From positions 42,844,001 to 42,908,000 of the forward strand of contig OZ076409.1 in assembly GCA_964187785.1 (NCBI GenBank): DNA of 64,000 nt, in the 5' to 3' direction. Source of the DNA: Amphiscolops sp. MND2022. Its lineage: Eukaryota. Shown piece by piece: positions 24,942 to 48,485 of the stretch (its first letter is position 1; each line of letters opens with the position of its first letter). The position numbers were made by a program, and so were the translations under genes. A model generated the notes under the pieces. It saw only the letters and a program-made list of their open reading frames with translations, ran no database searches and was not told the origin of the DNA.

Positions 24942-25154
24942 GGTAAAGGGTCACTTGGCTTAATGTCATTTGGCTTAAAGTCATTTGACCTAATGACGTA
25001 GGTCACTTTGCTTAATTATTTTAAACCAAGTGTATCGGGTATTGGCTTAAAATCACTTAGTTGAAAATACGTGGCAGATTTTGTCGAATTTATTAATATA
25101 ACGTAGTCAGCGTATTATTATAACATGTCATATCAAGCACCCCTCGGATATGTC

Positions 25155-27310
25155 TGTCACGACCCGCTCCCGGTCGGGATTTCACCTGCTGTGGGGGAAT
25201 ACCCAAATTCGCTAGAGGGAGAGGTCACGGAAGACCAGCGGGACACTAAAGTAATAAACACTTTTAAATCTTACCTTTATCTAAACCGCAGCACGAGTTA
25301 AGTTGAGCGGAAATGTAACGTAAAATATCCAAAAATGATTTCTGACAAATAGAATTTCCGGTCCAATGTTTTCACATGCAACAGTTTAATTTACTTCCGG
25401 TTTTAACTGTTGAAAATTCCATGACAATCTAAATACTAAAGATGAAAACATTCTTAACATTGGGATCAATTTTTCTCCTTTCCACACTAAAAAGAAAACA
25501 TTAAAACATTATCTAATTCCGTGATCCCAACGGAACGCATACAATCTAAAATGAAAAGAACATAGAAACAGTTAAGAAGATTTGTTTTCAGAGTTTGAAG
25601 TAGTTGTAAAAAGCCACTCAAAATACAGTCAAGTAATTTGAATAAACCTTTACAACGTTATGACAGCGTCACTCAAATATCTAAGTTGCTGGTATTTCTA
25701 ACTTACGGACCAATAGCGTTGTAGCTAATACAAGCAAATTTGCGCTCAAGCTAGTTAGAACCATTCCTAATGACGTCATTAAGAATGAATTTAAAGATGG
25801 CGAATTACTCCGAGCTTGCTCCGCTAGCAGCTAAGAAAGCTATACTCAATCTTAATATGTACGGAGTGCTTACGGAACAAATTGTAAGCCGAGAAACTTA
25901 TAGCCAATCTTAATACGTAGGGAGCATTTACGGAGCGTTTACGGAGTGAATTGTAATAGGTGAAGTTATACCTAATGTTAATACATGTAAGATAAGCGTG
26001 GAAAATTCTAAAACTCAGAAGCTATCCAAATACATTAGGATGTTCCTGAGGTCATGTAGAATTATTCTGAGATATTTAAATTATCATAAGGTTTTACTTT
26101 TTCCACCCGGATTCTCCCCGTTTAGTGATTAGATTAGAATGTTCGTGCTGTTAGTTAAGATAAAGGTAAATCACTTAATGAAGGAGCTTTGTATTATATT
26201 TTCGCAAAAGAAGTCACCTAATTTTGCTACGTTGGTATAACGTTACTGGATGTAATGCAATATTTTGTTATTTTGATTATTCGCTATAAAATCGAATCAT
26301 GTAAAATATTGTTAGATGTTTCTGTCATGTTGCCAGATATTCTTGATTCTTCAATAATCAGAATTCTTGTTTATGTTTATCACCTTTTCAGCATCACTTG
26401 TTCCTTGTCAAATATCTCACTTCATTAATCCGAAATTAGCCGAGATATTTCCGTAGCAAATTTTGCTTGTCATCATTTTTATAGCGAGTTGAAAATTTCA
26501 TCGCACGCAAACTGAATCATTGTTCACGCCAGCGTGCCTCTTGCGATGAAAATCTAACTAGATTTTTATTTTGCCGCATTTTCCGTGATTAAACCGGAAA
26601 TGGGACAACTGAACAAAATTGATTTCAACAAGTACTCCGTAAGATTGCCGTAACTAGGAATTTTAAATTATGAACAATTAATTGAAAGGCTGAAATGATA
26701 TGAATGATTAAGCATTTTTTATGAACAAAACGGATTTTAGGGATTCCTAGGAATTTTTAGGTGAGGAACAAATGATGCTGAGAGGGTATATATAGTTAGA
26801 AATCTCATGTAAAAATCAATCGACCCTTTTGTTTCACTGCGATCAATTTTGTTCCGTTATAATAACGAAAACTCATTCTTCGACGAATTCAAATATTTTC
26901 CGAAGACCTTGTTCTTGAACTCTGAAAAATGACTACCAGAAGCCAAAAGAGAAAAGCAGCTGAAGAGCTTATTTCAACTGAAATAGAAACTCCTCTACCC
27001 GAAAACACTACGGGCGAAAATCCTATAGTAGGTACAAGCAAATCTCCTAAAGTCACTACTGACAGTTTAGAGAATATAAAATCTGTGCTGAGAAAAGAAA
27101 TCATGTCTGACCTCACTAAGATCTCAGCTGAAAACCAGAAGGAGACGCTAAAACTGATAGCCCCGACCGTTAGAAAACAGACCGTATTAAGATCAACAGA
27201 GGATTCAGACTCTGACTCCGAGAACAATCCGGAAAACGCGACCTCAACCCCAATTAAAGGCAAAACCAATGCGACTAGCTCTAAAATAACGCCGAACAAT
27301 AGTCGTAACA
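25155..27310 (+). repeat. 5' LTR
   Basis: Direct repeat of 38719-40874 (~99% identical by manual count); TG...CA ends; TAATGACGTCATTA palindrome 25768-25781; TATATATAG 26787-26795. Confidence 0.97.
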
Positions 27311-28337
27311 TGGTGACAGGAGTCCTCAATGACACTACAAACCAACCCACCAAGAGACCAAAACACCGCGTACCTAACGACCAATCGAAGGAACGTCCAA
27401 CTACATCAAACATCCTGTTCGCGCCACAACCGCAGACATTCCCATCGGCCAATCTACTCCCGATGCCGAAAGCACTCACAGCTTCACTCCCCGTGTTCGA
27501 CGGTAAGTCAGAAAAATTCGAACTGTTTGAAGACTTATTCCGAAACAAAATCAAAATGTACCCCACTTAACTGAACTCCAAAAAATAAATTATTTCCACT
27601 CACTCCTGAGAGGGAACGCACTTCAAGCGTACTGTAACCTGGACGATACCAAAAAAGACAACTTGGAAGAAGTCATAACAGCCTTCAAACGCCGTTTTGG
27701 CGACTTCCAATCCTCTGCAAAAACGCGATGTGATTGGGACGCACTACACTTCGATCCCACTAAGCAAAAATTACACGAATTTCTGGATGTCTTGCAAAAA
27801 ACCGCAAAAGAAGCGTTCGGTCCAGAGGCGCAAAAATTCATAGACAAAGCTATATACGCAAAAATGCCGGACCATGTCAAAAAGATTCTCAACCGTGCCT
27901 ACCTCGAAGACAAGCCGTACAACGACATTGTCCTCCATCTCGAAAGAGAGATGCGCCTCAATGGCCTGGGCGCCCCAGACGAAACAATACTAGTTCCACT
28001 AAACACGGTCGACGTTGCTCCCCCGGAACCGAAAAAAGAGCCCACCCAACGAGGAAACTGCTTCCACTGTGGCAAATACGGCCACTACAAAGCCCAATGT
28101 AGAAAACTCCGCAAAGAACGCTACTACGAAACTAAAGCGCAAAACGGTGCTACCAATACAAATGACCCGCCCAGACCTAAATGTGACACATGTGGAAAAC
28201 TTCACAAAACTGAAAACTGCTGGTACGGAGCTAATGCGGCAAATGACCCCAGAAAGAAACGCCATGAATTTGCCATACCTACCAGCCAAATCAGTGAACA
28301 ACCGATCCCCACTGTCGAAATTCAGCCAAAAAACTAA
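26929..28337 (+). CDS. gag: Gag; one apparent 1-bp deletion at ~27561; two zinc knuckles
   Basis: ORFs 26929-27570 and ..28337 join (LPVFDGK...MYP/HLTELQKINYFHSLL); CFHCGKYGHYKAQC and CDTCGKLHKTENC. Confidence 0.9.
27311..27323 (+). promoter_or_regulatory. Primer binding site (tRNA-Leu-like, assignment uncertain)
   Basis: TGGTGACAGGAGT immediately follows the 5' LTR. Confidence 0.75.
28328..28334 (+). promoter_or_regulatory. -1 ribosomal frameshift slippery site A AAA AAC
   Basis: Heptamer directly before gag TAA; the -1 frame is open into pol (28481 frame); GC-rich segment with cTTCGg follows. Confidence 0.8.
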
Positions 28338-31300
28338 AAACGCCGCGCCTCCGCTTCGGGGAAACGGTAGACGCAAGGGCATATACAATCGAAGATCCCC
28401 CAAATCGTTACGAAGAAGACGCGATAACAGAATGCAACGACGAACCAACTCAGGACTGGCAACGGCGTTGGAACGTCGGCATGATCCTCCGTAACAACGC
28501 CAGACACCCCAATGATCCAAAACCACTACCTGCGTGGATCACGGAATCCCCCGACAACTATGCTACACTCAAACGGCCACTTCCCGAATCCAAAACGGAA
28601 CGAAAATACATCTATGATATGGACTATCGCTGCGACCCTTGGGATGAACCGGACATATACGATACCAATTCCCTGTCTTTCAAAATCCATATCCAAAACC
28701 CACCAAAAGAAAATGAAGAAACGATCAATTTTCCACAACCACCATCGCCAATTTTAAAGAAACCAAAATCGCCACAACCAACACCCGTCACCTCTGCGTC
28801 TACAACAATCAACGCCGAGGACATAATATGCTTAGAAGACAAAACACTGTGGCACACCAAAACTATAAACAATACCACAGACACCTCCGATCCTCCACCG
28901 TCACAGACAGCACCAGAACCACCAAAACGGCAGACCCAACATGAAAACGCAGAAACAACGGAATGCCCACAACAACTACCTTATGACCTCAAAGTCATAA
29001 AAGAGTTCATACAGCACGACAAGGACGACGACTACATTCCATTGATGTCAGCAATCACCCTAAAGAAGAAAAGGAGAATGCTCTTCATACCCCTAGACTT
29101 CGAAAAGGTCAGAATAGACGCCCTTGTAGATTCAGGCGCCTACATAAATGTCATCAGCGAGAGAGACGCAGAAAAAATACAAAAAGAAACTAAAGCGGCC
29201 ATAACTGCAAAAGCACCGCCGCCACCATTTAAAATTCAATACGCCAATACCGAACTTGAAAGAGCTCTCGCAACATACACGATGAAGTTCAACATCGGAG
29301 ACTACACGTTTGAAGAAACCTTCATCATAATGACAAAAGCATCATTCCCAATCATAGGTCTAGCATTTCTCCGGAAACATTCCGCGATCTTAGACACAGC
29401 GCAAGGAACAATCGACTTCCCACAAATACAAATCACCCTGGCCCTGAAAGACGAAATGCAGAAGTGTAACCCCAAACCCATCACCGTCAAAACCGAAGAA
29501 AAACACACCATCCCGGCACAATCTACACGGATCATACACGCGTCCATAACTGTGAGTACTGACCACCCAATAACTGGGACTATACAAACCCTACCACAGT
29601 ATGATGAGAACGCAAAACTCATAATAGCCCCTGCAATTACAACAGCCCGGGATAAACGCGTGCCTATTAAAATAGCGAACACAACAGACTTCCCCTACAC
29701 CATAACCCCCCACACAAAATTGGCGGAGTTACAAATATTGAAACCCGAAGAAACAAAATCAATTCGACCAGTAGACCTAGCAGCCCTCAATCTCCTCACT
29801 GAACATGACGATGTCATAGCGTACGTGAACGCGCTAATGCAAGTTGACTCTCCTGAACAAACAGAAGAGAAATTCTGGTTCCCTACCCCTGAAAATCCCG
29901 GAGATGAAACGGAACACACGCCCATTCAACAACGAATCCTCAAAGAACTGCGAGAATTACAGAAACTTGAGGAACTAGACCCCAAACAAAGTGAATCATC
30001 TAGAACCCAATTCCTATCAATGTTTAAATGGGACAATTCACTCATAACGGGAGAAGACCGTGAAAACCTAGAATCCATACTTGTTGAATTCAACGATATC
30101 TTTGCACTTCATCGGCTAGACATCGGAATGAATACGCAATTCAAAGTCTCACTGACGCCCAAAAACGACAACCCGGTATACACACAAAGCTTGCCCGTAC
30201 CAATCAACCTCAAAGACGACCTCACAGTGGAACTAGCTTTAATGCACAAATACGGGATCATCACCACCCTCCCCTTCTCCAAATACGCCAGTCCCATCTT
30301 CGCGCAACGCAAAGCCAACGGCAAATTACGACTTCTTGTGGATTTGCGGAAGATCAACGCACTCATCTCAGATGACTATATCAACAACAACCACCCCATC
30401 AGCACCCTCTCAGATGCGGCACAACACCTAGCGGGGAAACAACTGTTTTGCAAGCTCGACTGCTCCCAAGCCTACCACTGCCTCCAAATGGCAGATCAAA
30501 GGTCAGTAGAACTTCTCGCTTTTAATTTTGCTAGCAGAACGTTTGCCTACCGGAGGCTGGCCCAAAGCCTCAGCAGAGCACTGTCAGCATTCTCGAGCTT
30601 CATGCGGGAATACCTAGACACAGTCATCAAAGCAGTTCAATGTGCCCAATATGTCGATGACATCGGCATTGCCGCCAATACAATGGAACAACTAATCAAA
30701 AACATCAGAGCAGTTTTCAGGTGCATCCGCAAAGCGGGCCAAAAACTGACAATCGAGAAATGCCACTTCGGGGTCACTCAAGTTGAATTCCTCGGAAGAA
30801 CCATCACGCCCAACGGAATAGCCCCGCAAGACCACAAGATCACCAATTTCTTGTCCAAAATCAGATTTCCCCGATCAAAGAAACAAGTCCAAAAATACAT
30901 TGGGTTCATCAACTATTACCGAAATTACATACCAAGATTGTCAGAAAAAATGATCGGTATGTACGAACTTCTAAAAGCAGACGCCAAAATCACCATATCT
31001 GAAGAACTAGTCGACAACTTCAAAGCGATTAACGCGAGCCTAGCGGAAGCCTGCGGACTTGCACTCAGACAGCCGATTGCAGGAAAACAATATGTACTGA
31101 TGACGGATGCTAGCTTCCGAGCATCCGGATATGCGCTCATGATCGAAGAAAACGACGACAAAAAACTACTCTCCAAAAGAAAAACCTTCGCCCCTGTAGC
31201 TTTCGGATCACGCGTGTTCTCTCCGTCACAACTGAAGATGTCGATATACTGTAAAGAATTCCTCGCAATATATCATGCATTCCTTGAATATAGTCACATT

Positions 31301-33541
31301 CTCTGGGAAACAACACTATCTACACTAGTACTGACAGACAACAGATCAGTAACGAGATTTTTCCAGACGAAAACAACGCCACCCGCTCTCTGGAATGCAT
31401 GCGACTATGTACTCCAGTTCAAATTCAGCATCATGCACGTAGCTGGCTCGCAAAATACAGCAGCCGACTTCCTGTCTCGCCTCGAATTAACTCCAAAAGA
31501 GAGAATCCAACTCAAATTGCGAGACGACATCATAACGGCACCTATCGAGGTTAACCTACAGTCTACAGATGTTGCGGACGAAGAACAACTCTTTTTCCTG
31601 CCAGACGAAGAAGAGGAATCAGAACAAGAAATTTTCGCCAGGAAAGCCCTTAGCAAACAACGAGCAATAGACGAAAAGGAACAACAAAACTTGACAACGG
31701 AAGTCACAGAAACAGTGCACATACCTCTCAACTCAGCAGTATACGCCTTTGGAGCCATCAAGGAAAACGCCCGCATCCGCAACGAACAGGACGCGGACCC
31801 GATATTGAAAGCATTGAAACTACGGCTGCTTCACGAAGAGTACGACAAACACCTTCTCAAGACCGAACCCAGAGGACGAAACCTACTACGTCACGAAGAA
31901 AGAATAATAGTCAAAGACGGAGTACTCATGCGTAAATACTACGGAGAAGATGGCACAGTAACACATCACCAAATCCTCATACCGAAACATATAGTACCAG
32001 AACTCCTATCGACGCTACATGGAAAAATGAACAAACACCCAGGAATAACCAAAATGATTCAGGAAAGCCGAGCAAAGTACTACTATCCGGGACTAGCGCG
32101 GAAAATTAGAGCCTGGGTAATCAACTGCCCAGATTGCATAGCCAACAAACGAATCGACACGCGCCAAATACGTCCTAAAATGCTGAGTAATACAGAATTC
32201 ACATTCGGACCAGAAGATTGTCTAGAAGTCAATATTCTACCCAATCTACCCTCATCAAATGGCTACAAACACATCATAACCATGATGGACGTTTTCTCCC
32301 GTTATTTGTTCGCATACCCCACTCAAGACATGACTGCCAGAACAGTCGGACGATGCATAATTGACGTTATGACACGTCACTGTTATCTGCCTACAGTCAT
32401 TCTGACTGATAAAGGATCACAATTCCGATCAGATGTCGTGAACCAAATAGCACAAACACTGGACATACGGATTAGCCACGCATCGACGAAACATGCACAA
32501 ACGATTGGAATACTAGAGAGAACGCACGCATCTCTAAAGACGTCCCTTAAAATATCAACGGGAGAACGCCGTTCAATGTGGCACAAGTACGTACAAATAG
32601 CAGTCATGAATTACAATACAAGCTATCACGAGAGCCTAGGCTGCGAACCAACAACAGTGTTTCACGGACGCATCCCGTACAACATCCTAGACATCAAACT
32701 GGGACTCAAGCCAGAATGGAAAAAAGAAGCCAACAAAGACCTAACGGACGAATTACAGAAACAGATAGCTGAGATACATCAATCAGCCAAGGACAACCTT
32801 ATGCAATCATATTTGAAATATAAGCGATACTATGATAAAAAAGCGACAGCAACGCCATTGAAAATCAATGACTATTGCTATGTCCTGAATCCGAAGGCTG
32901 ATAACCAGTCAATGAAATTCGCTTTCAAAGATTGCATTTGGACGGGACCATATATAGTGGTCAAAGTCCTTTCTAACAACAACTATGTCGTAAGACGAAC
33001 GGGAACAAGATACACTCAAACCCTCCATAGAATTCGCCTAAGGCTATATGCGCCCAATCAACGAGTACCTGACGTAACAGTCAAAGTGGAAGAACAACTT
33101 CCAGATCCAGAGGTTAAAACAACCCACGACGATTGGTACGCGCAAGCTTGGGAAACCGAATTCGGAGAAGTTCTGTTCGGCAACTCATCGGAAAGAGAAA
33201 ATGAAGAAGCTAACATCACAGAGCTGCCAGCGGAAGACGCAAATACAACAGAGCAAGAAACAGTTATAACAACTGCAGACGAAACTTCAATAGCAGAACA
33301 AATTCCCTCCGGAAATGAAACGTCGCTCAACCTAGATGTCAGCGATAACCCTTTCATAATGACCCCACCGCCTATGTAAAGCCCTCCCATACCGCCTACA
33401 CTCCCGCCTATAGTTGTCGGATACAACCCGAGGAAAGCAGGAAGATACAACTTACGTCCTAACCCTAAGCCTAATGCACATCACGATTTCCGGATGCTTG
33501 ACGCAGTCACAACAGAAGAAATACCTCAAACTCAATATTGA
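28334..33541 (+). CDS. pol: Pol (protease, RT, RNase H, integrase); in-frame TAA at 33377 probably premature
   Basis: LVDSGA, QYVDD, TDAS, H..H..CPDC, TDKG..ERTH; frame continues past TAA with RYNLRP to TGA 33541. Confidence 0.95.
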
Positions 33542-33824
33542 ATGAAAACACTCAACGGGCTAAACCGAACCGGAGTAGCTACGTTAAATTTTTGCATCAG
33601 ATCTCTAAAACTACGTAAAACAAAAGAAAGCTACACATTAGCCAAAGATACAACAGCAGATAAAACAATATACAAAGGAAACTATCCATCGATGAAATAG
33701 CATCACAGTTTACATCACTTATTAGAAGGCTTTTTCAATTTATGGACTACGTCCGGATCTTTATCATTTTTCTTGCTCCCTTTCTTCGGCTTTTTCACTC
33801 CTCTGGCACCACCCTTCTGCGGTA

Positions 33825-36800
33825 CTACAGGCACTTCACGTGTCGTCTTAGGTCTCTTCGCATCAGAAGTGGTTCCAGCACTCTTTCCAACAGATAAACC
33901 ACAAGAAAGCTTAGATGACCCCGAACGCCCTTCCCAGCATCACTACTAGCAGTTCTAGTACATTGGTCCATACGAGCCAGCCGGTTGGTCTTATTACAAT
34001 CAACATAATGCGCCTCGTACTCTTTCCGGCGCTGCAACAACAATTTGTGACACGACTCATTGTGGGAAGAAACAAACGAGTCATACGTTGGGCCCACGAA
34101 ATCCTTCCACAAATTGATCTCACCACACACAAAGAAAACCCCAGCTTCATCTACAGCGGCTCGAACTGCATCCATAGTCTGACCGGTGAAGAAACGTTGA
34201 TGACAGTAACCAGGACTTAACACATATGACTGCACCAACTTGATACAATTCTGCAACGCGTCCTCACGCAGTGAACTACCACTGAGGATGATAGATACAG
34301 ATGGATAAACCACATCCAGGGTCTCGATCGTCAAACAACAGAGCTTAAAGATACGCATCAAACGCTCTCGAGACTGAAAACTAAAATCGCCCAACAAATA
34401 CTCCACTATATCTTTGACACTGCTAGCAGACTGCCAGGAACTACGGTGCTGACCCCGCTTCTCAAGCACATAACTGCTAAACTCGTCCACAGCACAGCGG
34501 GACTCCTCAGCAGTTATCAAATTACACGTCTTCAATAAACGGCACAAATCTGCAAACAAGGCAAATACACCATGGTCGCCGCCTTCGAACAAGATCTCAG
34601 GGCAGAAACTGTATAGACAACGTGACACTCCCGATGTCACACTCACACTACCAACAATCACGACGATCAACCTGTCCAGAAACTGTCGACATCGTGAACG
34701 AAACTCTGGCAGCTCTCCGGTCGTTCTAACCATCAAAGTTTTTCCGAAGTCATCATTTGCCAAGAAAGCGTCTGGAGCCACTACGGGAAAAGATGAAATC
34801 GCCTCAGCCGACATATATTTTTCCCACTCGTGAATGCCCGGAAGAGTTCCAACAGCGCGAGTCTTCAGCAAAAGGCAATACACGAAATTACAGAGCTCTC
34901 CGTATGAATGAAAACTGTAATCTCTACGGCTCTGTCGCAACTTCGTGAAATTGTTATAGACTAAAACACAAATGACACTAACCAACTGCTACGACTCCAA
35001 GACATACTCACAATTCAACGAAAACGCAAAGGCTACAAGAACAATCCATAAGGTGAATCTTCAGTCAACACAAGCACAATCAATCATCACGAATATCAAA
35101 CGGAACTCAATAGCCCTTACTCACATGTATCAAGTATCAGACGTAAAAGCCCGAGACGATGAAAAAACATCTCATCAGCAATGATGTTCCAATCAGTGCC
35201 TTTCAGCTAAAAACAACAAAATCACCGCCATCAAAATAACGAAACACACAATACCAAGAGAATTTATGAATATCCAACTTACTTTATCAGCAGTATCTTT
35301 AGCATGAGGAAGCCCGGTACAACGAATATACGGCTTTATCGATGGCCACAGCTCGATCAACTCGCCCACTAAATCGCGAAGATCTTCAAAAGCCACAACT
35401 CCTTTGGTGATACACCGGCGCAAGACAACCTTGTCCTCCGTCCACTCCTCGTACATGGCACTCTTCATCCGAACCACAATGTATTCGACCAATGTGACCA
35501 ACTCCACCATCCCGAATACATCCTGATGAGCTTGGCGAAAGCACTGGAGAAAGACATCGCTGCTGAAAGTGGACACAACCACAAATTGGCGAGTATCGTC
35601 CCGACTTTCACACAGCTCTCGGAATAACAACGGACTACAACCACGGATCGAAATTGGCAGAGGCCCATCAGTCAAACTACACAGGACCCGAGCAAGAGGA
35701 ACCAACTCAGCATCAGGGAATTTCTGGTCCAACGGCTGTTGATCCACGCAGATCCTTTTGAAATCCTCATCCTCCCAGTAGACTACGTAGCAACACTCGA
35801 GACCATCGCGCTTTACAAACTCCACACTGTTTTCACGTGACAAAGACACATTGCCCAGAACGGCACGCAATACCCGCGGAGCGAGACCCTGACAAAGGAA
35901 GGCCTAAAACACACACCAAATAAGCCAATTTGCTGATACAAACACTAAAGCAGTCAGTCATACAATCAGAGGAAAGATAAAAACACAAAACAACAGTCTA
36001 CGAAACAACCATAAACCAGACTAACCACAGTCTCAGAGCGGCTCCAATTCATCGAGAATTGAGGCTCCCGGAAGCCCAACGAAGACGTGAAGTGGCCCCA
36101 GAGATGTCGCAACAAGATAAAGTCGCCACCCCTGCCAACCAGGTCACAAACACTTGACACTAGGGTCATCAAAGGCACTTTTGAGTTTGGATGTGAATGC
36201 TTCAACAAATCCTCAGGGAAAGGAAATTCCACACCAAGATCTTCAAAAGGCCGCGCACGATAGTCAGCCAACTGTGTTTCGGTGAGAATCATTGGCTCCA
36301 GAATTTTGTTATACACAGGCAGATCCATATGTACCCTGTACGTAACATCACGCCGCCAATGTCCAACCGACCCGAAATGACGGATGATCTCGGACACACC
36401 GTGAGCACGTATGGCAACGTCTCGCTTGCACATCCGACAGAAGAAGTACTCATCTGACCCACTTTTGGCACCAGTCACGAAGTCATTGAATGTAGGATGT
36501 TCGCCAAGCATCCGTCGACTCAAAAGATTCCGCTTACTGTACTTGCGCTTCTTAGGACTCAACTTTGCGGACAGATCCCGAAATCCTATAACAACACCAT
36601 GAAAAATATCAAGTAAAGGCCACCACCATAGAGATAACTAATACTACACAACGCCCGCCATACAATAAGAAGAACTTACCACTTTGGATAGCCTCAGAAG
36701 TGCGTGTTTCCACCTCGTTCACTAACTGGCGACCCAATGCTACCCAATCCTGCGGCCCAAACGTAGTACCTCCGGTGTCATCTTGACCTATCAATACACA

Positions 36801-37623
36801 ATCATAAACAATAAGAGAAAAAAACACCTCTCCCCCATTACACAAATACAAAGGCCAACTAACTCAACCACCCCTTCAGATCCGCAGCCAGTTCAACGCC
36901 ATCAGAACTCTCCTCCACTCTCTTGGCACACGTAGGACTGACTCCAAAGCTAACGGACATACCCCGTGATACACCAGTCTTCCCTGCAAACGACACCCAA
37001 AGCGTAAAAACCACTCACCACAAAACAAACACCAAGAAAATTATGTCAACCATGTTAACCTTTCTTCCTGGTGGGGGTAACAGTCCCACCTCCATGGGAC
37101 TCAATACTGGAATCATCCCCATCCGAATCATCGTCGGAGTCTCCGGCATCTACTGTAGGCACACTTTTAGACCCACTAGCCTCACCCTCAGGAGGGAGAA
37201 CATTTACTGCCGGAGAAGATGCAAGTTCAGCCTGTCCGAGAGTAGACGTTATGTCGTTGATAACAGCACTGGGAATAACAAGCAAGATAGAGGAAACTGC
37301 GGGCAACAATGATCCAGAACAAGACGTCACTACTGCGGTAGTTGCAGAAGCAGCAACAACAGACGTTGTACCAGGTTGAGCTACTGAAAATCAGAATCTG
37401 GATTCAGACGCGTCAGAGTTACGGGTAGGACTACAAAGGCTGATCACCAAAATAACAAGTCCCAATACCCATGGAAATCAGAAAGATTTTACCAACCTGA
37501 AGTAGCCCGAACAAACTCTATGTCAGACACGCCCAATTCGCACTCAGAATGTCCATAAACCGTTTCGTTCCTACCGATGAAACCACCAGGTGGAATGGGG
37601 GGACGCACACTTTCTTCATCCAT
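33825..37623 (-). CDS. Spliced antisense accessory gene, ~1025 aa: acidic disordered N-terminus, BED-like zinc finger, putative inactive hAT-transposase-derived body
   Basis: Exons 37623-37497, 37383-37060, 36983-36864, 36787-36680, 36585-36026, 35903-35283, 35206-35125, 34960-33825; all seven introns GT..AG and phase-compatible; 3078 nt without internal stop; FCRMCKRDVAIRAHGVSEIIRHFGSVGH. Confidence 0.85.
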
Positions 37624-38084
37624 GATTCAACGGCAATCTAAAAATAAAAAGAAACGATCAGGAAAGAGAAGATTACGCGAGGTGAACGCAAACCCCCTAA
37701 AGGAACGAAACGTCCCCAAAATCCTACGGGCGAATCAAAACCTACAAGGAGATTCTCAAAAGACTTAAAGAAAAATCATTTTGAAATTACGGAGTATAAA
37801 CGTAGTTCCCCTAAAGAAGCATCAATGACGTCATACGGACAATCTCCGGAAAAGAATTGGTGACGCCATGATGAAGTTCAAAATTAGAAACTTTATTTAT
37901 ATCGGTTCAGCCAATCACAGCGCAGATGGAAACGAAACGTTTCCGAAGAAAAACGAACCGGAATAAAAGGAAAATAACAGCCAATAGGAATGCAGGAAAA
38001 TTACGAACGAAAAGGAAGTTGACCTTTTCCTTTGCCGCATCCCAAACGTGAAGTTAAGTTAGCTGAAATCTTCAGAATTCAAAA
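37624..38084. promoter_or_regulatory. Putative internal bidirectional promoter
   Basis: Lies between divergent ATGs; ATGACGTCAT 37825-37834, reverse CCAAT 37856-37860, CAGCCAATCA ~37908-37917, CAGCCAATAG ~37978-37987. Confidence 0.6.
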
Positions 38085-38813
38085 ATGAGCAATTACGAAC
38101 TCGTAATTGATATCTCTTCTGATGAAGAAGAAAACGAAGTCAGGCAAAGCACACCCATCAAAACCCTCCCACTAAATGGGATCACAGTTCTGAACCTCTC
38201 CGAAGCCTCCTTAGAAGCTACAAAAGGCAGCGCAGAAGAGATGATGGACTCTATCAATAGTCTAAATTTATCCGGCATCTCAGCGTCTACATTTGAGACT
38301 ATCGGTTCACCGAGAAAAATAAACTTCGGCACTACAAGCCCTGGCGAAGCTTTCATAGTGGAAGGGCATAGTACTGAAACGTCTGAAGAAAGCTACTTTG
38401 AAGAGCCGGATACTCCCCGTCAACTACCGCCGCTGCAGCCCGCCCCAGTATTACGAGACGTGTCTAACAAAGAGCTTCAGTACAATGGACCGCCTGCAAA
38501 AGCCGACAAACTCGACGACTTGATGGAGCCAGCAGTAGAAGAAATCGAAAACCCATACGGCATAGATCTACAAAGCAGCCTAGAATACAGCCCGTTGTGC
38601 GGACGTGGGACGAGATTCACCTCAACCAGGCTGGCAAGGACGCGGAAGCAACCCGTGCTCATCACGAGGGAGATTCCTCATTGCCCCAGACCGTGGGAAA
38701 CAGGCTATAGAGGCGCCCTGTCACGACCCGCTCCCGGTCGGGATTTCACCTGCTGTGGGGGAATACCCAAATTCGCTAGAGGGAGAGGTCACGGAAGACC
38801 AGCGGGACACTAA
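38085..38813 (+). CDS. Accessory ORF, 242 aa, acidic/Ser/Pro-rich with N-terminal SIM-like motif; ends inside the 3' LTR
   Basis: AAAATG start; MSNYELVIDISSDEEENE; uninterrupted frame; no signal peptide or TM stretch. Confidence 0.7.
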   Translation: MSNYELVIDISSDEEENEVRQSTPIKTLPLNGITVLNLSEASLEATKGSAEEMMDSINSLNLSGISASTFETIGSPRKINFGTTSPGEAFIVEGHSTETSEESYFEEPDTPRQLPPLQPAPVLRDVSNKELQYNGPPAKADKLDDLMEPAVEEIENPYGIDLQSSLEYSPLCGRGTRFTSTRLARTRKQPVLITREIPHCPRPWETGYRGALSRPAPGRDFTCCGGIPKFARGRGHGRPAGH

Positions 38814-40874
38814 AGTAATAAACACTTTTAAATCTTACCTTTATCTAAACCGCAGCACGAGTTAAGTTGAGCGGAAATGTAACGTAAAATATCCAAAAAT
38901 GATTTCTGACAAATAGAATTTCCGGTCCAATGTTTTCACATGCAACAGTTTAACTTACTTCCGGTTTTAACTGTTGAAAATTCCATGACAATCTAAATAC
39001 TAAAGATGAAAACATTCTTAACATTGGGATCAATTTTTTTCTCATTTCCACACTAAAAAGAAAACATTAAAACATTATCTAATTCCGTGATCCCAACGGA
39101 ACGCATACAATTAAAATGAAAAGAACATAGAAACAGTTAAGAAGATTTGTTTTCAGAGTTTGAAGTAGTTGTAAAAAGCCACTCAAAATACAGTCAAGTA
39201 ATTTGAATAAACCTTTACAACGTTATGACAGCGTCACTCAAATATGTAAGTTGCTGGTATTTCTAACTTATGGACCAATAGCGTTGTAGCTAATACCAGC
39301 AAATTTGCGCTCAAGCTAGTTAGAACCATTCCTAATGACGTCATTAAGAATGATTTTAAAGATGGCGAATTACTCCGAGCTTGCTCCGCTAGCAGCTAAG
39401 AAAGCTATACTCAATCTTAATATGTACGGAGTGCTTACGGAACAAATTGTAAGCCGAGAAAATTATAGCCAATCTTAATGCGTAGGGAGCATTTACGGAG
39501 CGTTTACGGAGTGAATTGTAATAGGTGAAGTTATACCTAATGTTAATACATGTAAGATAAGCGTGGAAAATTCTAAAACTCAGAAGCTATCCAAATACAT
39601 TAGGATGTTCCTGAGGTCATGTAGAATTATTCTGAGATATTTAAATTATCATAAGGTTTTACTTTTTCCACCCGGATCCTCCCCGTTTAGTGATTAGATT
39701 AGAATGTTCGTGCTGTTAGTTAAGATAAAGGTAAATCACTTAATGAAGGAGCTTTGTATTATATTTTCGCAAAAGAAGTCACCTAATTTTGCTACGTTGG
39801 TATAACGTTACTGGATGTAGTGCAATATTTTGTTATTTTGATTATTCGCTATAAAATCGAATCATGTAAAATATTGTTAGATGTTTCTGTCATGTTGCCA
39901 GATATTCTTGATTCTTCAATAATCAGAATTCTTGTTTATGTTTATCACCTTTTCAGCATCACTTGTTCCTTGTCAAATATCTCACTTCATTAATCCGAAA
40001 TTAGTCCGAGATATTTCCGTAGCAAATTTTGCTTGTCATCATTTTTATAGCGAGTTGAAAATTTCATCGCACGCAAACTGAATCATCGTTCACGCCAGCG
40101 TACCTCTTCCGATGAAAATCTAACTAGACTTTTATTTTGCCGCCTTTTCCGTGATTAAACCGGAAACGGGACAACTGAACAAAAATGATTTCAACAAGTA
40201 CTCCGTAAGATTGCCGTAACTAGGAATTTTAAATTATGAACAATTAATTGAAAGGCTGAAATGATATGAATGATTAAGCATTTTTTATGAACAAAACGGA
40301 TTTTAGGGATTCCTAGGAATTTTTAGGTGAGGAACAAATGATGCTGAGAGGGTATATATAGTTAGAAATCTCATGTAAAAATCAATCAACCCTTTTGTTT
40401 CACTGCGATCAATTTTGTTCCGTTATAATAACGAAAACTCATTCTTCGACGAATTCAAATATTTTCCGAAGACCTTGTTCTTGAACTCTGAAAAATGACT
40501 ACCAGAAGTCAAAAGAGAAAAGCAGCTGAAGAGCTTATTTCAACTGAAATAGAAACTCCTCTACCCGAAAATACTACGGGCGAAAATCCTATAGTAGGTA
40601 CAAGCAAATCTCCTAAAGTCACTACTGACAGTTTAGAGAATATAAAATCTGTGCTGAGAAAAGAAATCATGTCTGACCTCACTAAGATCTTAGCTGAAAA
40701 CCAGAAGGAGACGCTAAAACTGATAGCCCCGACCGTTAGAAAACAGACCGTATTAAGATCAACAGAGGATTCAGACTCTGATCCGAGAACATTCCGGAAA
40801 ACGCGACCTCAACCCCAATTAAAGGCAAACCAATGCGACTAGCTCTAAAATAACGCCGAACAATAGTCGTAACA
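38719..40874 (+). repeat. 3' LTR
   Basis: Direct repeat of 25155-27310; contains a truncated gag start at 40495. Confidence 0.97.
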
Positions 40875-41198
40875 ATGTCCCCATTTCCTCTAGTGCCCCG
40901 CGGCCCCTTGGGGCCGCCTATATTCCCATCTTGCTAAGCGAGGTCGAACAGGAGCAAAGACCTAGCGGGAACGGAGATCGCGAAGCGATCGTAGTGGGAG
41001 CTGGTCTTTGCGACGGTGAGGGCGAGCGTCCGTACACCGCATATGCCCCACATTGATATTTCCGTGAGTTGACTCATTTATTCTGTGAGTTGGATTGGAG
41101 TTGGCTTAATTTTGTGGTCACTTGGCCTAAAATTTTGAAGCCAAGTGACTCCTAAGAAATATTAGGCCAAATGGCATTAAGCAAAGTGACCTGTGACC

Positions 41199-41750
41199 CT
41201 ATATTGGACTCATGATGCATCTTCATTTTTCCCGGACAGTGTTGCTAACTTCCTCCAGAGTCATGTTACTCGATTCAGAAAGTTTTTGAGAATTCAAAAT
41301 TGTACGCGATAAAAACAGCAAGATGTCAGCCTTTTCAATAACCATCTTTGAAACCTCAGATGGAAAAATAATTACAAGTCATTTCTGAAATGTTGCACCA
41401 AAACCCCACCAGCTTGTAACAATATATCGCCCCTTTTAAACCTCCAATGGTATGACGCCATCAAAATATGTGAAATGTTGATCGGCAATTCTTTCGCTTC
41501 AGTCAAATACGCTTGGAAATATTGGCACGCGGAATCTCCGATGTGTCGTTGTGGCAAGAGTGAAGAGACTGCCGAACAATTCTTTCTGGCATGTGGTTAA
41601 TACCAAGTCATCAGACCTGAAGATATTGACTCATTGAATCTCCTGGACCCTGATGACTGCAATACCATTGTCGACTACATCTCACATTCAACGAAGTTAA
41701 AAGAATTCGTAAATCTCTCATCCTTGAATCCTAACCTAACTTTATCCAAC
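41199..41750 (+). mobile_element. 3' end of the I-group-like LINE begun at ~20549
   Basis: Resumes after the MITE TSD; C-terminal knuckle remnant MCRCGKSEETAEQFFLAC. Confidence 0.75.
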
Positions 41751-43866
41751 TCTCGAAGTAAAGCTTCAGTCTAGCAGAAATCATTCTCTAAAATAACTTT
41801 CCAACATGGCTAGAAATTGATAATGGTCTATGGCTGGAGCATTGTTCGTAGGATTTCTTTCCCGGCTTTTTTATAAGAGTGATCCTTGATATGTTCCAAG
41901 GCCATGTGGATGGGATCCAACATGTGTTAAACAGGAAGAGCAATAAAATTTTCATGTTGGCTCCCGATTTTTTCAGCATGGCAACATGAATCATTTCATT
42001 GTCAAATAACATGAATCATGTCATTGTCAAATGAAAAAGATCTGCATTTTTTCAAGGCCTCATTTAGTTCGACCATACTAAAATCACTGTCAAGTTCATG
42101 CCATAACTCAGGTGTGGTGTAATCAACAGTTGGTTGCCAGTCATGGAAATAGTTTCCTCCAAGATGCCTGCCTTCGAAAAATGTTTTGCGAAATTCTTGT
42201 GAAATGAACTTTGGATCGCACAAAAGCTCGCCATTTTTGTTTCTGACAATGCCAATATTCTCAAACTTATCTTTGAATAGTCTCTTATGACACTTCCAGA
42301 ATTCTCTACATTTTTGTACCCAAGCTGCTCTAGTTGATTACGTATCCACGTTGATGCAGACTCGCTCAAAAGGTCTTTGAAAAGCTCACTCTTCTCTTTA
42401 AAATCTTCGACATTCGAGTAATTGCATTGCGTTTGAATTTTCTTCTTGCTTCCCGCAATGATTTTCTCGCCTCTTCCAGCTTGGTAATCCAGAAAGGTTT
42501 GCTATGATTCGATACAGTTTTTGAGGGAATAAAATTTTGTGAGGCGTGGGCGATAAGCGAATTAGTGAATATCCAGAGTTCGTCAGCTTGATTGCTGGGA
42601 ACAGTGTAGCTATTCTGCTCCAGAAACAACGACCAATTGTCCCAATCGGCTTTTTCAATCCAAGGTTTAGACTTCGTTGTTATTGCTTCAGATACTGACT
42701 CAAATTCTACTGTGACTGGTATGTGGCCTCTATTTGGAGCACCCGAAAACAGCTCAACATCCTTGTCTACTGAGCTTCAATGAGGAATGTCACATTAGAA
42801 TATCACACAATATCCTTGATGAAGAACAAGAAGGTTTCAGGACTCATCGGAGCACTACCCGTTCTTTGTATCGTATGCATTTCGTATTAAAGGAAGCAAA
42901 GCGCTCGAAAAAGCCAACCGCACTACTGAATATTGATCTGGAAAAGACTTTTGATAGCATTTGGGTCCAAGGTCTGCTTTATAAACTTGAATCGGTGAAT
43001 TTGCCCCACAGGATGCTATGTATCATATCATCCTTTCTTAGCAATCGGAAGGGATTCATTGATATCAACGGCCATTACACTGAACTTTTCGATATTAATG
43101 TTGGTCTCCCCCAAGGCAGTGTGCTATCCCCTCTTCTTTTCGTTTTTTACCTTAGTGACTTCTTATCCGAAGTCGAGGTAAAGTTCAAATTTGCAGATGA
43201 CAGCTCGGCTATCATCTCTGCTTTTAACACAGATACCTTACATTCAACTCTACAAGCTATTTGTCATAATATAGAATTTTGGTGCAAAAAGAGGAGAATG
43301 GTAGTTAATGGGTCTAAAACTGAACTACATCTTTTGAATTGCTTGGCTGACAACACTGAGCCAATCCTTCTCAACGGGGAGCGATGCAAGACGAAGCAAA
43401 CTACTAAATCTCTGGGCTTAGCTATAGACACTAACCTCACCTTTAGAGAGCAAACGTCTATTACGGCCTCGAAAGCTTTAACTAGCTGGAGGCTGCTTTA
43501 GAGTAAATGCTCTAACAGGTGGGGCCTCAGTATACCAACACAAGCCTATCTGTATAAAACCATAATCAGACCACAGTTATTATATGCGGAGCCGATATGG
43601 GCCCAAAGAAACTATGCAAGCCTACAGATTGTTTAAAATCGAATAATTCGCTCCATAATGAAACACAGCATGTCTCCAAAGATAACAGCTATTGAAGTGT
43701 TGATGGGGATTCCTCCTGTAAATATTTATTGTTCTTCAATTGAAATAAAATTTTTAACCAAAGCAGTGAATGAAGATGATTTAGTTACCGCGACCCATGT
43801 CAAAACATTGACAAGACCCCGTAGTCTCTCCTCCCTTCTCCTAAGCAAACTGAGAAGATTTGAAAG
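41749..43866 (+). mobile_element. 5'-inverted I-group-like LINE, copy 1 (41749-~42795 inverted; ~42800 onward forward)
   Basis: Minus segment ends ...SHVGKLF*RMISARLKLYFE; plus segment resumes SHNILDEEQEGFR, DLEKTFD, PQGS, FADD. Confidence 0.85.
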
Positions 43867-44206
43867 GGGTGGTTGTAAATAGGTCCAATTTTTCTGGTCG
43901 AAAGGACAGAGGTCGAACCTTCTGATCGAATTGCAGGGATCGAATGGAATGCGGTCGAATTTTATCGTATTTGTTGTATGGCTCGGTCGCTTCGCTCCCT
44001 TCGCCAAGTAGCAACATTGAGGCATGGTCATATGGTACGTCGCTCCGCTTCGCTTCGCTCCTGCATTCAAGGCACTAGGGGTATGTGAACATATCTGACT
44101 ACGTTATAAAAATTTCGATCCGAGTTGTTTCGATCCCATTCAAAAATTTGGTATTTCGACCTGAGGACTAACTCTGATTTTCGATCCCGTTCCTTCGACC
44201 CGTTCC
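43867..44206. mobile_element. Truncated copy of the 47327-47696 MITE
   Basis: Near-identical to 47327-47680; right end cut by the duplication junction. Confidence 0.7.
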
Positions 44207-47200
44207 GTAATTATTTTAAACCAAGTGTATCGGGTATTGGCTTAAAATCACTTAGTTGAAAATACGTGGCAGATTTCGTCGAAATGTCATATCAAGCACC
44301 CCTCGGATATGTCCCCAATTCCTCTAGTGCCCCGCGGCCCCCCTGGGGCCGCCTATATTCCCGTCTTGCTAAGCGAGGTCGAACAGGAGCAAAGACCTAG
44401 CGGGAACGGAGATCGCGAAGCGATCGTAGTGGGAGCTGGTCTTTGCGACGGTGAGGGCGAGCGTCCGTACACCGCATATGCCCCACATTGATATTTCCGT
44501 GAGTTGACTCATTTATTCTGTGAGTTGGATTGGAGTTGGCTTAATTTTGTGGTCACTTGGCCTAAAATTTTGAAGCCAAGTGACTCCTAAGAAATATTAG
44601 GCCAAATGGCATTAAGCAAAGTGACCTGTGACCCTATATTGGACTCATGATGCATCTTCATTTTTCCCGGACAGCGTTGCTAACTTCCTCCAGAGTCATG
44701 TTACTCGATTCGGAAAGTTTTTGAGAATTCAAAATTGTACGCGATAAAAACAGCAAGATGTCAGCCTTTTCAATAACCATCTTTGAAACCTCATATGGAA
44801 AAATAATTACAAGTCATTTCTGAAATGTTGCACCAAAACCCCACCAACTTGTAACAATATATCGCCCCTTTTAAACCTCCAATGGTATGACGCCATCAAA
44901 ATATGTGAAATGTTGATCGGCAATTCTTTCGCTTCAGTCAAATACGCTTGGAAATATTGGCACGCGGAATCTCCGATGTGTCGTTGTGGCAAGAGTGAAG
45001 AGACTGCCGAACAATTCTTTCTGGCATGTGGTTAATACCAAGTCATCAGACCTGAAGACATTGACTCATTGAATCTCCTGGACCCTTATGACTGCAATAC
45101 CATTGTCGACTACATCTCACATTCAACGAAGTTAAAAGAATTCGTAAATCTCTCATCCTTGAATCCTAACCTAACTTTATCCAACTCTCGAAGTAAAGCT
45201 TCAGTCTAGCAGAAATCATTCTCTAAAATAACTTTCCAACATGGCTAGAAATTGATAATGGTCTATGGCTGGAGTATTGTTCGTAGAATTTCTTTCCCGG
45301 CTTTTTTATAAGAGTGATCCTTGATATGTTCCAACGCCATGTGGATGGGATCCAACATGTGTTAAACAGGAAGAGCAATAAATTTTTCATGTTGGCTCCC
45401 GATTTTTTCAGCATGGCAACATGAATCATGTCATTGCCAAATAACATGAATCTTGTCATTGTCAAATGAAAAAGATCTGCATTTTTTCAAGGCCTCATTT
45501 AGTTCGACCATACTAAAATCACTGTCAAGTTTATGCCATAACTCAGGCGCGGTGTAATCAACAGTTGGTTGCCAGTCATGGAAATAGTTTCCTCCAAGAT
45601 GCCTGCCTTCGAAAAATGTTTTGCGAAATTCTTGTGAAATGAACTTTGGATCGAACAAAAGCTCGCCATTTTTGTTTCTGACAATGCCAATATTCTCAAA
45701 CTTATCTTTGAATAGTCTCTTATGACACTTCCAGAATTCTCTACATTTTTGTACCCAAGCTGCTCTAGTTGATTACGTATCCACGTTGATGCAGCCTCGC
45801 TCAAAAGGTCTTTGAAAAGCTCACTCTTTTCTTTAAAATCTTCGCCATTCGAGTAATTGCATTGCGTTTGAATTTTCTTCTTGCTTCCCGCAATGATTTA
45901 CTCGCCTCTTCCAGCTTGGTAATCCAGAAAGGTTTGCTATGATTCGATACAGTTTTTGAGGGAATAAAATTTTGTGAGGCGTGGGCGATAAGCGAATTAG
46001 TGAATATCCAGAGTTCGTCAGCTTGATTGCTGGGAACAGTGTAGCTATTCTGCTCCAGAAACAACGACCAATTGTCCCAATCGGCTTTTTCAATCCAAGG
46101 TTTAGACTTCGTTGTTATTGCTTCAGATACTGACTCAAATTCTACTGTGACTGGTATGTGGCCTCTATTTGGAGCACCCGAAAACAGCTCAACATCCTTG
46201 TCTACTGAGCTTCTATGAGGAATGTCACATTAGAATATCACACAATATCCTTGATGAAGAACAAGAAGGTTTCAGGACTCATCGGAGCACTACCCGTTCT
46301 TTGTATCGTATGCATCTCGTATTAAAGGAAGCAAAGCGCTCGAAAAAGCCAACCGCACTACTGAATATTGATCTGGAAAAGGCCTTTGATAGCATTTGGG
46401 TCCAAGGTCTGCTTTATAAACTTGAATCGGTGAATTTTCCCCACAGGATGCTATGTATCATATCATCCTTTCTTAGCAATCGGAAGGGATTCATTGATGT
46501 CAACGGCCATTACACTGAACTTTTCGATATTAATGTTGGTCTCCCCCGAGGCAGTGTGCTTTCCCCTCTTCTTTTTGTTTTTTACCTTAGTGACTTCTTA
46601 TCCGAAGTCGAGGTAAAGTTCAAATTTGCAGATGACAGCTCGGCTATCATCTCTGCTTTTAACACAGATACCTTACATTCAACTCTACAAGCTATTTGTC
46701 ATAATATAGAATTTTGGTGCAAAAAGAGGAGAATGGTAGTTAATGGGTCTAAAACTGAGCTACTTCTTTTGAATTGCTTGGCTGACAACACTGAGCCAAT
46801 CTGTCTCAACGGGGAGCGATGCAAGACGAAGCAAACTACTAAATCTCTGGGCTTAGCTATAGACACTAACCTCACCTTTAAAGAGCAAACGTCTATTACG
46901 GCCTCGAATGTTTTAACTAGCTGGTGGCTGCTTTAGAGTAAATGCTCTAACAGGTGGGGCCTCAGTATACCAACACAAGCCTAACTGTATAAACCCATAA
47001 TCAGACCACAGTTATTATATGCGGAGCCGATATGGGCCCAAAGAAACTATGCAAGCCCGGCTTACAGATTTTAAATAGGGCCTACAGATTGTTTAAAATC
47101 GAATAATTCGCTCCATAATGAAACACGGCATGTCTCCAAAGATAACAGCTATTGAAGTGTTGATGGGGATTCCTCCTGTAAATATTTATTGTTTTTCAAT

Positions 47201-47680
47201 TGAAATAAAATTTTTAACCAAAGCAGTGAATGAAGATGATTTAGTTACCGCGACGCATGTCAAAACATTGACAAGACCCCGTAGTCTCTCCTCCCTTCTC
47301 CTAAGCAAACTGAGAAGATTTGAAAGGGGTGGTTGTAAATAGGTCCAATTTTTCTGGGAGGGGTCGAACCTATAGGGGTTCGTTCTATAGGGGTCGAACC
47401 TTCTGATCGAATTGCAGGGATCGAATGGAATGCGGTCGAATTTTATCGTATTTGTTGTATGGCTCGGTCGCTTCGCTCCCTTCGCCAAGTAGCAACATTG
47501 AGGCATGGTCATATGGTACGTCGCTCCGCTTCGCTTCGCTCCTGCATTCAAGGCACTAGGGGTATGTGAACATATCTGACTACGTTATAAAAATTTCGAT
47601 CCGAGTTGTTTCGATCCCATTCAAAAACTTGGTATTTCGACCTGAGGACTAACTCTGATTTTCGATCCCGTTCCTTCGAC
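44207..47680 (+). repeat. Second unit of a ~3.45-kb tandem duplication (first unit = 25012-25154 + 40880-44206)
   Basis: Colinear near-identical sequence at offset ~3435; includes an uninterrupted MITE core 44207-44633. Confidence 0.92.
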
Positions 47681-48290
47681 CTTCTTCCGCCCACCCATCC
47701 GAAAGAACTCATATGTCTCATTCTTACACTCGGGACTCCATTAATGCCTTTATCAGGGATGACTGGAACCGCAGATGGAAAGTCCGTATAATGACATTTT
47801 CCTCAAGAATTTCATTTCCAACTTACCACGAGAAATGATTTATTCACCTTTACTGGACGGAAACCCTTTGATTGCCAATATGATAAGCGATCTTCTCATC
47901 GGAAGCTCACGAAGATTAGCTGAAAACTCATGGAAACTGAGCCGCACACCATCGCCCATGTGTATTTGTGGAGTGTCAGAGCAGAACAGCTACCACTATT
48001 TCTCCTATTGTCCAAATTATCGTATATTCAGACCCTTTCATCTCAATTTTCTTGATCTTTTCATCTCTGATGACTGTGCCATTTTTAGAAACTTCACCTC
48101 CGGTACAAATATTATTAAATGTACTGAAACTGCCGTAGGCGATCCTGCCTGATATGTATGCATCCACTGTATTGTAACTGTTCTTAAATAGTTCTGTTTC
48201 ATACCTGTCCGCAAAGAGGGGCTTCATTTTAGAATTTATATATATATTTATTTAATTTGTAGCCTAATTGTTGTGATAAACTTATTAAAT
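45184..48290 (+). mobile_element. 5'-inverted I-group-like LINE, copy 2, with 3' end
   Basis: As copy 1; after the MITE it continues to CICGVSEQNSYHYFSYC and an AT-rich 3' UTR. Confidence 0.85.
47327..47696. mobile_element. MULE-like MITE with degenerate 9-bp TSD
   Basis: Ends GGGTGGTTGTAAATAGGTC / GACCTTCTTCCGCCCACCC; ATTTGAAAG (47318-47326) vs ATCCGAAAG (47697-47705); interrupts the LINE frame RRFER|THMS. Confidence 0.7.
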
Positions 48291-48485
48291 AGGAATTTCC
48301 CTTTCACCTTTTCAAATCGTGTATTTTCAGAACTTTTGAGCTAGAGGATTGAACCCATTTTTTTACTCTCCAATCAGGTAGCTATTTGAGGTTTTGTTAA
48401 CTTGGAGCGGCCTGAAAGGAGAAACAAAAAGGAACAATTTTAAAAATCCCACCGATCTCTAGCTTGGTGGGCGAAGATTCCATTC

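Follow-up and report, generated by a model that had tools for sequence, protein, structure and literature searches.

We analysed a window of 64,000 nucleotides (nt) from Amphiscolops sp. MND2022 (contig OZ076409.1, positions 42,844,001 to 42,908,000), part of a eukaryotic assembly of 1.07 Gb. The window carries a Ty3/Gypsy long terminal repeat (LTR) retrotransposon on the plus strand (25,155-40,874), with paired LTRs and a target-site duplication (TSD). Behind its pol gene lie a spliced antisense gene and a short sense open reading frame (ORF), arranged head-to-head. We found that this accessory region is real, selected and so far undescribed. The antisense gene is apparently a disarmed DNA-transposon enzyme domesticated by the retrotransposon. 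An earlier reading of the bare letters (hereafter the original prediction) had proposed a two-gene accessory cassette that might serve against silencing, and its claims are taken up where the results bear on them.

The antisense gene runs on the minus strand from 37,623 to 33,715, with eight coding exons for about 1,060 amino acids (aa). The coding part of exon 1 (37497-37623) is preceded by a conserved splice acceptor 14 nt before the ATG. Exon 2 (37060-37383) is acidic and rich in S, T, V and A, with a short basic patch; exon 3 (36864-36983) is of low complexity, and exon 4 (36680-36787) follows. Exon 5 (36026-36585) encodes a BED-like finger, C-x2-C-x16-H-x5-H, and the helical domain after it, and exon 6 (35283-35903) encodes RNase-H-like strands in which the catalytic aspartates are not conserved. 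Exon 7 (35125-35206) leads to exon 8 (33715-34960), which holds the helical insertion/C-terminal part of a hAT-like fold and a basic tail.

Each of the seven introns has GT-AG ends, and a comparison of 16 copies showed 111 of 112 intron end-pairs conserved. Across eight diverged subfamily representatives (about 46-76% protein identity), introns 5-7 keep identical codon positions and GT..AG ends in 24 of 24 cases, with lengths from 73 to 217 nt. Database homologues without introns align over the exon 5/6 and 7/8 junctions with a drift of 0-1 residue, and over the 6/7 junction with 4-7. Pairwise Nei-Gojobori ratios of nonsynonymous to synonymous divergence (dN/dS) against family B were 0.061, 0.045 and 0.086 for exons 5, 6 and 8, at dS 0.7-1.5; pairs with saturated dS were left unused, and L016 was substituted for L017 in exon 6, where L017 has a stop. 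At third codon positions, the antisense gene has the strand bias of pol (A 0.38, C 0.30, G 0.19, T 0.13 in its exons against 0.38, 0.31, 0.16 and 0.15 in pol), which fits a long residence in the element.

A frameshift near 33,931 in exon 8 is private to the window copy, being absent from all 16 compared copies. Six of 12 near-identical copies retain an uninterrupted antisense frame of 1,063 codons (L014 and the split copy L021 were excluded from this count). Read by eye, a pyrimidine tract and splice acceptor lie 13-37 nt upstream of the antisense ATG in 11 of 11 loci, so a non-coding leader exon or trans-splicing is likely, and the gene probably has more than eight exons. The eight-exon antisense gene of the original prediction is thus upheld by its conserved splice sites and a dN/dS far below 1, but the window copy is frameshifted and the exon number is probably too low.

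A profile search returned P0146, a contiguous homologue of 890 aa that is 28% identical to window exons 5-8 and collinear with them across the junctions. Its fold model, built on a 67-row alignment, reached a predicted local distance difference test score (pLDDT) of 81.6 and a predicted template modelling score (pTM) of 0.74. In Foldseek, ranks 1-10 were all Hermes (E 1.9e-5 to 3.2e-4, prob 1.00), and the next unrelated row listed had an E of 3.4e-2. VIA-align, run over 48,161 chains, also placed Hermes first (Z 12.4, root-mean-square deviation 5.8, 410 residues), as the sole match with Z of at least 8, followed by other DDE enzymes such as ISCth4 (6.5), Tn5 (6.2) and RAG1 (5.9). The best match of the model in the viral library was a hAT protein (E 3.8e-4), and Atlas features lean to hAT-clan families (scores 0.81-0.83), which we treat as a lead only. 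On the strength of this model, the antisense protein is almost certainly of hAT-transposase origin. Ordinary hAT elements are common in the genome, with at least 150 Dimer_Tnp_hAT matches (150 of 150 scored above the Pfam cut-off), so donors for the antisense gene existed.

All 9 sequences compared have the finger C-x2-C-x16-H-x5-H without variation. This finger has no match to Pfam zf-BED, and it fits the BED signature C-x2-C-xn-H-x3-5-H/C as given in the available portion of PMC7471704. Both the N-terminal C2H2 BED-like finger and the overall fold over 410 residues are shared with Hermes and hAT transposases, as far as these are covered in the accessible text of PMC10368747 and by PDB 2BW3, 4D1Q and 8EDG. 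Unlike Hermes, the antisense protein has neither a conserved DDE triad (two aspartates and a glutamate) nor terminal inverted repeats (TIRs) around its gene, shares only about 10% identity with it, and is encoded inside an LTR retrotransposon. The zinc-finger DNA-binding protein of the original prediction was therefore right as to the finger, and missed the whole hAT fold without a catalytic triad.

Among 36 sequences, D or E made up at most 19% of any column in the first core strand and at most 11% after strand 4, giving no conserved DDE triad. A helix with a conserved E, as expected for the third catalytic residue, was not found either, and this stretch is modelled as extended chain. With conservation mapped onto the predicted model, the protein is very probably catalytically dead. 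Among the 25 longest of 97 inverted pairs, none brackets the antisense gene, so the secondary insertion with its own TIR/TSD that the original prediction had considered finds no bracketing TIR pair.

The region might be read as passive cargo or a nested DNA transposon, functionless for the element, since the window copy is frameshifted and a hAT origin fits nested insertion. This is hardly credible in view of a dN/dS far below 1 at high dS, splice sites conserved while intron lengths vary freely, no TIRs, no conserved catalytic triad, and presence across lineages whose integrases are 52% identical. A nested hAT insertion was rejected because none of the 25 longest inverted pairs brackets the gene and because of purifying selection.

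At the sequence level, profile and Pfam searches detected no similarity to ordinary hAT proteins. Profile searches of protein collections returned this family alone, from a single type of source and with none of it named, and a metagenome scan yielded no relative. PDB sequence searches with three profiles gave chance rows only; Pfam was uninformative for single exons, for 23 database homologues and for alignments, and so was an Atlas search with an exon-8-only model. These results bear on the idea of a decoy, in which the dead transposase would poison hAT multimers or occupy the sites of DNA transposons or host hAT-derived factors. The abundance of Dimer_Tnp_hAT matches and the coexistence of many deep alleles would suit such a role, but the lack of sequence-level similarity to ordinary hAT proteins makes mixed multimers unlikely and no clear cis benefit to the carrier is evident, and we regard it as improbable.

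The sense ORF (38085-38813, plus strand) encodes 242 aa, of which the last 31 codons or so lie inside the 3′ LTR. The protein has an N-terminal motif of the type that interacts with SUMO (small ubiquitin-like modifier), termed a SUMO-interacting motif (SIM), with an acidic/serine flank, an acidic low-complexity middle and a basic RG-rich tail. Its first 170 residues carry a net charge of -22 and its end +12, and it looks disordered. Five unsaturated pairs gave a dN/dS of 0.14-0.18 for this ORF, and the part outside the LTR gave 0.13-0.17. All 8 aligned representatives (37-89% identity) share the VIDISSD-type motif unchanged. Among 120 database homologues, 87 have it, and the N-terminus is missing from many of the other 33. 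The motif fits the SIM consensus V/I-V/I-x-V/I/L with an acidic, serine/CK2-type flank, as set out in the available part of PMC2808386. The SIM-bearing protein of the original prediction is thus supported at the level of a predicted motif, and we infer that the sense protein may be a SUMO-engaging cofactor.

Pfam gave no match for the sense protein and no toxin-like domain, and the sense protein has no membrane segment (maximal 19-residue hydropathy 0.77). An identity as env was rejected, since the sense ORF lacks a transmembrane segment and the antisense protein has a transposase fold; this agrees with the earlier view that neither gene looks like env. The two genes diverge from a spacer of 461 bp, ATG to ATG (37624-38084), with a cAMP response element (CRE), TGACGTCA, at 37,826 and CCAAT boxes at 37,911 and 37,981. 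Of 10 representatives, 9 keep the CRE and 9 keep a pair of CCAAT boxes spaced by about 70 bp. A 242-aa sense ORF placed head-to-head over a CCAAT/CRE spacer of about 460 bp, as originally described, is confirmed.

Conservation of the region extends well beyond the window copy. In a search with exon 8, all 118 places scored were matches (46-100% identity), and a count by eye put those lacking an internal stop at about 99. The order pol, antisense gene, sense ORF, LTR was found in 6 of 6 diverged matches and four further loci. All ten subfamily representatives examined share this layout. A distant clade in the same genome (P0230 type, 28% identical) has the antisense gene after an integrase that is 52% identical; 13 of its 14 near copies adjoin the antisense gene, whose 861-residue core is intron-free, and a short acidic sense ORF lies in the same place. 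Cassette evidence adjoins at least 23 of the 40 nearest pol matches, the remaining 17 not being judgeable. The P0230 clade (G000:C2 around L043/L044) is without introns 5-7, which implies that introns were gained or lost inside the retrotransposon. The conservation and purifying selection on which the original prediction turned are seen in both genes (dN/dS 0.05-0.09 and 0.14-0.18), with the layout shared by ten representatives and the distant clade. We are highly confident that both accessory genes are functional for the element.

The two genes do not travel together. Compared with the window, L011 and L013 are 98-99% identical in the antisense gene (nt), 70-74% in the sense ORF and 81-82% at the LTR start; L032 is 99% identical in the sense ORF and 97% at the LTR start, and its antisense exons align partly, at 65-71%. 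By inspection, the pol tree and the sense-ORF tree (from which L037 was excluded) agree on the main split, and the exon 8 tree disagrees, with branches of 0.4-0.6 where pol has 0.01-0.1. Six deep antisense alleles occur on one pol clade. Swap breakpoints cluster directly after pol and at about 37,820-37,860. The antisense gene therefore swaps independently of the sense ORF, the LTR and pol, and the pair is not a fixed two-gene unit. Such mosaicism speaks against a pairing of the two proteins allele by allele, and also against antisense alleles evolving in strict step with the LTR. The two-gene cassette of the original prediction holds as a conserved, selected, non-env region, but its genes reassort freely between subfamilies.

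Directly after pol, where the left swap breakpoint lies, we noticed a 27-nt motif (about 33,562-33,590) that a strict pattern recovers in 6 of 12 loci. In the P0230 clade, 26 of 40 pol matches diverge directly after pol, which hints at the same swapping.

Reassortment also bears on a toxin-antidote or drive pair, in which the two genes would form a matched selfish module. A head-to-head pair under strong selection with deep allelic diversity is what such a module might look like, but free reassortment (L011/L013 against L032) and the absence of a Pfam toxin-like domain make it very improbable, and toxin-antidote pairing was rejected because the genes reassort freely.

We then considered what the antisense protein might bind. 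ACGGA occurs 11-14 times in 5 of 5 LTR stretches, where about 2 are expected, and 0 of 200 shuffles reach this number; its density is 1.3 per kb in the flanks and 7 in the LTR. The presumed LTR of the P0230 clade, whose start was inferred by likeness to that of the window, repeats GGGAC instead (9 against 0.9 expected). Hermes BED domains bind short motifs repeated in the element ends, according to the accessible portion of PMC10368747.

A disarmed transposase that binds LTR DNA could also serve as an integration aid, acting in the pre-integration complex, tethering it to chromatin or SUMO-rich sites and steering or protecting insertion. Binding and bridging the ends of an element comes naturally to transposase scaffolds (PMC10368747, in the part available), the LTR motif is repeated, and the integrase has no Pfam chromodomain. 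We consider this unlikely: the antisense gene has its own presumed promoter and stands outside Gag-Pol, so packaging is not evident, and the repeated motif lies within the LTR, not at its tips.

Our preferred explanation is regulation of the element's own LTR. We propose that a Gypsy lineage may long ago have captured a hAT DNA-transposon gene in reverse orientation. Antisense introns are not spliced from genomic RNA and so survive copying; reverse orientation would thus shield the introns of the antisense gene from removal. Selection would then have preserved the transposase scaffold and its BED-like finger, whereas the TIRs and the DDE active site decayed. The resulting protein may be a nuclear DNA-binding regulator, like the host-domesticated ZBED1/DREF, that binds short repeated LTR motifs (candidate ACGGA) and keeps the LTR transcribable. 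A target common to the whole clade would explain why antisense alleles can swap. The sense protein, through SUMO-binding short motifs, might divert or compete with the SUMO-dependent heterochromatin machinery. Two reports, in the portions available, make such a link conceivable: SUMO ligase activity of ZBED1 on Mi2-alpha keeps genes active (PMC7471704), and in piRNA (PIWI-interacting RNA) silencing SetDB1 is recruited via SUMO-SIM contacts (10.1101/533091).

Argued by analogy with these systems, regulation of the element's own LTR or chromatin by the antisense protein, with a SUMO-engaging sense cofactor, is a proposal on which we find belief and doubt evenly balanced. We hold its more specific form only tentatively and rather doubt it: sequence-guided counter-silencing, in which the disarmed hAT protein would mark the LTR, the SIM protein would intercept SUMO-dependent silencing at histone H3 lysine 9 (H3K9), and the deep, swapped alleles would record an arms race between element and host.

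The same DNA-binding anatomy would equally serve self-restraint or rival exclusion, with the antisense protein repressing its own or competing subfamilies' LTRs, much as HBZ and other antisense retroviral proteins modulate transcription, and so sparing the host. Repressors, too, make use of SIMs (PMC2808386, in the sections available), and antisense regulatory genes of retroviruses are discussed in the available sections of PMC11963269. The sign of regulation is not readable from sequence, and the many young near-identical copies mark a spreading lineage; restraint seems an unlikely role.

Several points weigh against a disarmed hAT protein acting on its own LTR with a SUMO-engaging partner. 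The fold was modelled on the homologue P0146, not on the window protein; modelling of exon 8 alone gave a poor result (pLDDT 53), for which the structural search matched just a long helix, helical models may reach Z near 13 by chance in VIA-align, and none of 67 family members has a Pfam hAT or BED match. The active-site positions were placed through model secondary structure and general rules of the RNase-H fold, and one strand-1 column is E in 7 of 8 window-clade rows, a possible catalytic remnant at which the window copy has V. As to the target, LTRs commonly repeat host-factor sites, and the motif link comes from just two clades, whose LTRs are related. LTRs that are nearly identical occur with antisense alleles only about 50% alike, so a change of LTR target leaves the allele diversity unexplained. 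The sense ORF of the P0230 clade lacks the SIM-type motif described above and has no tblastn match. Short SIM-like motifs are frequent by chance according to the available text of PMC2808386, though the one in the sense ORF is conserved.

The best functional model is ZBED1/DREF, which, as the accessible part of PMC7471704 describes it, is likewise a hAT-derived DNA-binding regulator with a SUMO link. ZBED1 and DREF are host genes, whereas the antisense gene is a multicopy retrotransposon gene with many alleles.

A second parallel, raised in the original prediction, is VANC of the VANDAL transposons, a plant-specific, MAIN-related protein that removes DNA methylation (PMC5735166; PMC13547354, as far as available). 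In the accessible portions of the literature we met, VANC is the sole sequence-specific anti-silencer encoded by a transposable element (TE) (PMC5735166; PMC13547354; PMC12859917). The window system resembles VANC, as portrayed in the available parts of PMC5735166 and PMC13547354, in being a TE-encoded accessory factor with fast diversification and a candidate motif repeated in the element's non-coding DNA. It differs in that the antisense protein has a hAT fold, no signature of methylation is seen at CpG, and within the clade a given allele does not go with a given LTR. None of the 67 family members has a Pfam match to a MAIN/VANC-like domain, and the best fold match is hAT. Observed/expected CpG is 0.86-1.13 in the element's genes, the LTR and the flanks; private transitions number 22 in 5,040 site-copies at CpG against 75 in 20,552 at other C/G sites, a 1.2-fold rise. 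CpG is thus neither depleted nor hypermutable, which suggests little methylation for a VANC-like demethylator to remove, and in its DNA-demethylation sense the VANC analogy finds no support in this pattern.

Antisense ORFs after pol are best known from plants. In Retand, Grande and RIRE2 elements they define Retand, their origin and function are called unknown, and they encode TRP28 (PF04195), with no similarity outside TEs, by the available accounts (PMC11963269; PMC7264820). The window element shares an antisense extra ORF after pol, but its antisense gene is hAT-derived, has seven or more introns and faces a divergent SIM-type partner; TRP28 (PF04195) matched 0 of 67 members of the antisense-protein family at E of at most 0.1. 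The giant planarian Gypsy element Burro and the orchid Gypsy AlkB illustrate the capture of host-interaction domains by Gypsy elements, with a SUMO-like motif in Burro, and in the accessible portions of these papers neither is described as a spliced antisense gene or a transposase-derived protein (PMC6431247; PMC9289625). Our literature searches found no hAT-derived accessory gene in an LTR element, and an entry in Repbase, Dfam or GyDB may exist.

Hosts are known to domesticate transposases; in the present case one mobile-element class has apparently domesticated an enzyme belonging to the other. The window element offers a traceable origin for an antisense accessory gene, where that of the plant cases has been called unknown. 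It also makes testable a standing question, whether non-plant LTR retrotransposons carry a defence of their own against silencing by chromatin. Handles for this are the finger, a candidate target of five bases that is not the same in the two clades, the SIM-type motif, and nearly identical backbones on which alleles have naturally been swapped.

Intron 1 of the antisense gene with its borders (37374-37499, minus strand) is a conserved non-coding element, 84-92% identical in nt across subfamilies, with a 7-nt inverted repeat over both splice sites. This region is better conserved than the neighbouring exons, with a full match in 39 of 45 sequences, and retention of the intron would cause an immediate stop. 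A coding exon was ruled out by in-frame stops. Signs of a structured RNA were faint (two double-sided changes, in one sequence each; z -0.6 to -2.9; both strands fold alike), and an Rfam scan of 33,300-40,900 gave no match. Intron 1 with its borders is possibly a splicing switch or an RNA signal.

The host element has a 5′ LTR of 2,156 bp (25155-27310, plus strand) that begins TG and ends CA, with 12 ACGGA in its non-coding part and the first gag codons in its 3′ end. Self-comparison of the window located the 3′ LTR, also 2,156 bp (38719-40874, plus strand). The LTR pair is 98.7% identical, and a 5-bp target duplication, ATGTC, stands on each side. The plus-strand gag (26929-28337) contains a CCHC knuckle and, near 28,328 at the gag/pol overlap, a slippery A AAA AAC; a frameshift near 27,561 in the window copy was judged relative to family B. 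By Pfam, pol (28298-33379, plus strand) has protease, reverse transcriptase (RT), RNase H and integrase in Ty3/Gypsy order, and the integrase has no chromodomain. The TG...CA LTR pair, a TSD of the 4-6 bp class, and gag followed by these four domains place the element in Ty3/Gypsy. Candidates for the primer-binding site and the polypurine tract are a TGG-start site 3′ of the 5′ LTR and a weak purine run 5′ of the 3′ LTR. The element's flanks join at a paralogous empty site at about 55,796-55,800, within a repeat at 55,566-55,967. LTR pair, ATGTC duplication, empty site and pol order together bear out the original prediction of a Gypsy retrotransposon within matched LTRs and TSD. Both LTR ends are coding: gag begins in the LTR before the primer site (26,929-27,310), and the sense ORF terminates in the LTR (38,719-38,813).

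A DNA search gave 14 copies at 95-100% identity and six at 77% among 40 candidates scored, and the many young near-identical copies indicate that the lineage is spreading. L002 and L003 (G000:C1) lie 13,595 bp apart, one element length minus one LTR, and are probably a tandem sharing an LTR. The insertion target was a copy of a repeat of about 600 bp, resembling a miniature inverted-repeat transposable element (MITE), with 45-nt inverted ends (24,942-25,154 and 40,875-41,045); an uninterrupted copy lies at 55,558-56,162. The window flanks at 13,111-24,589 and 40,875-58,784 consist of decayed pieces of long interspersed nuclear elements (LINEs) with RT and endonuclease matches, and the flanks hold tandemly duplicated stretches of about 3.1 kb (92%) and 3.4 kb (97%). 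The window also contains a 200-N gap at 16,091-16,290 and a near-perfect palindrome at 12,600-12,936, with 168-nt arms that are 95% complementary and separated by a 1-nt spacer.

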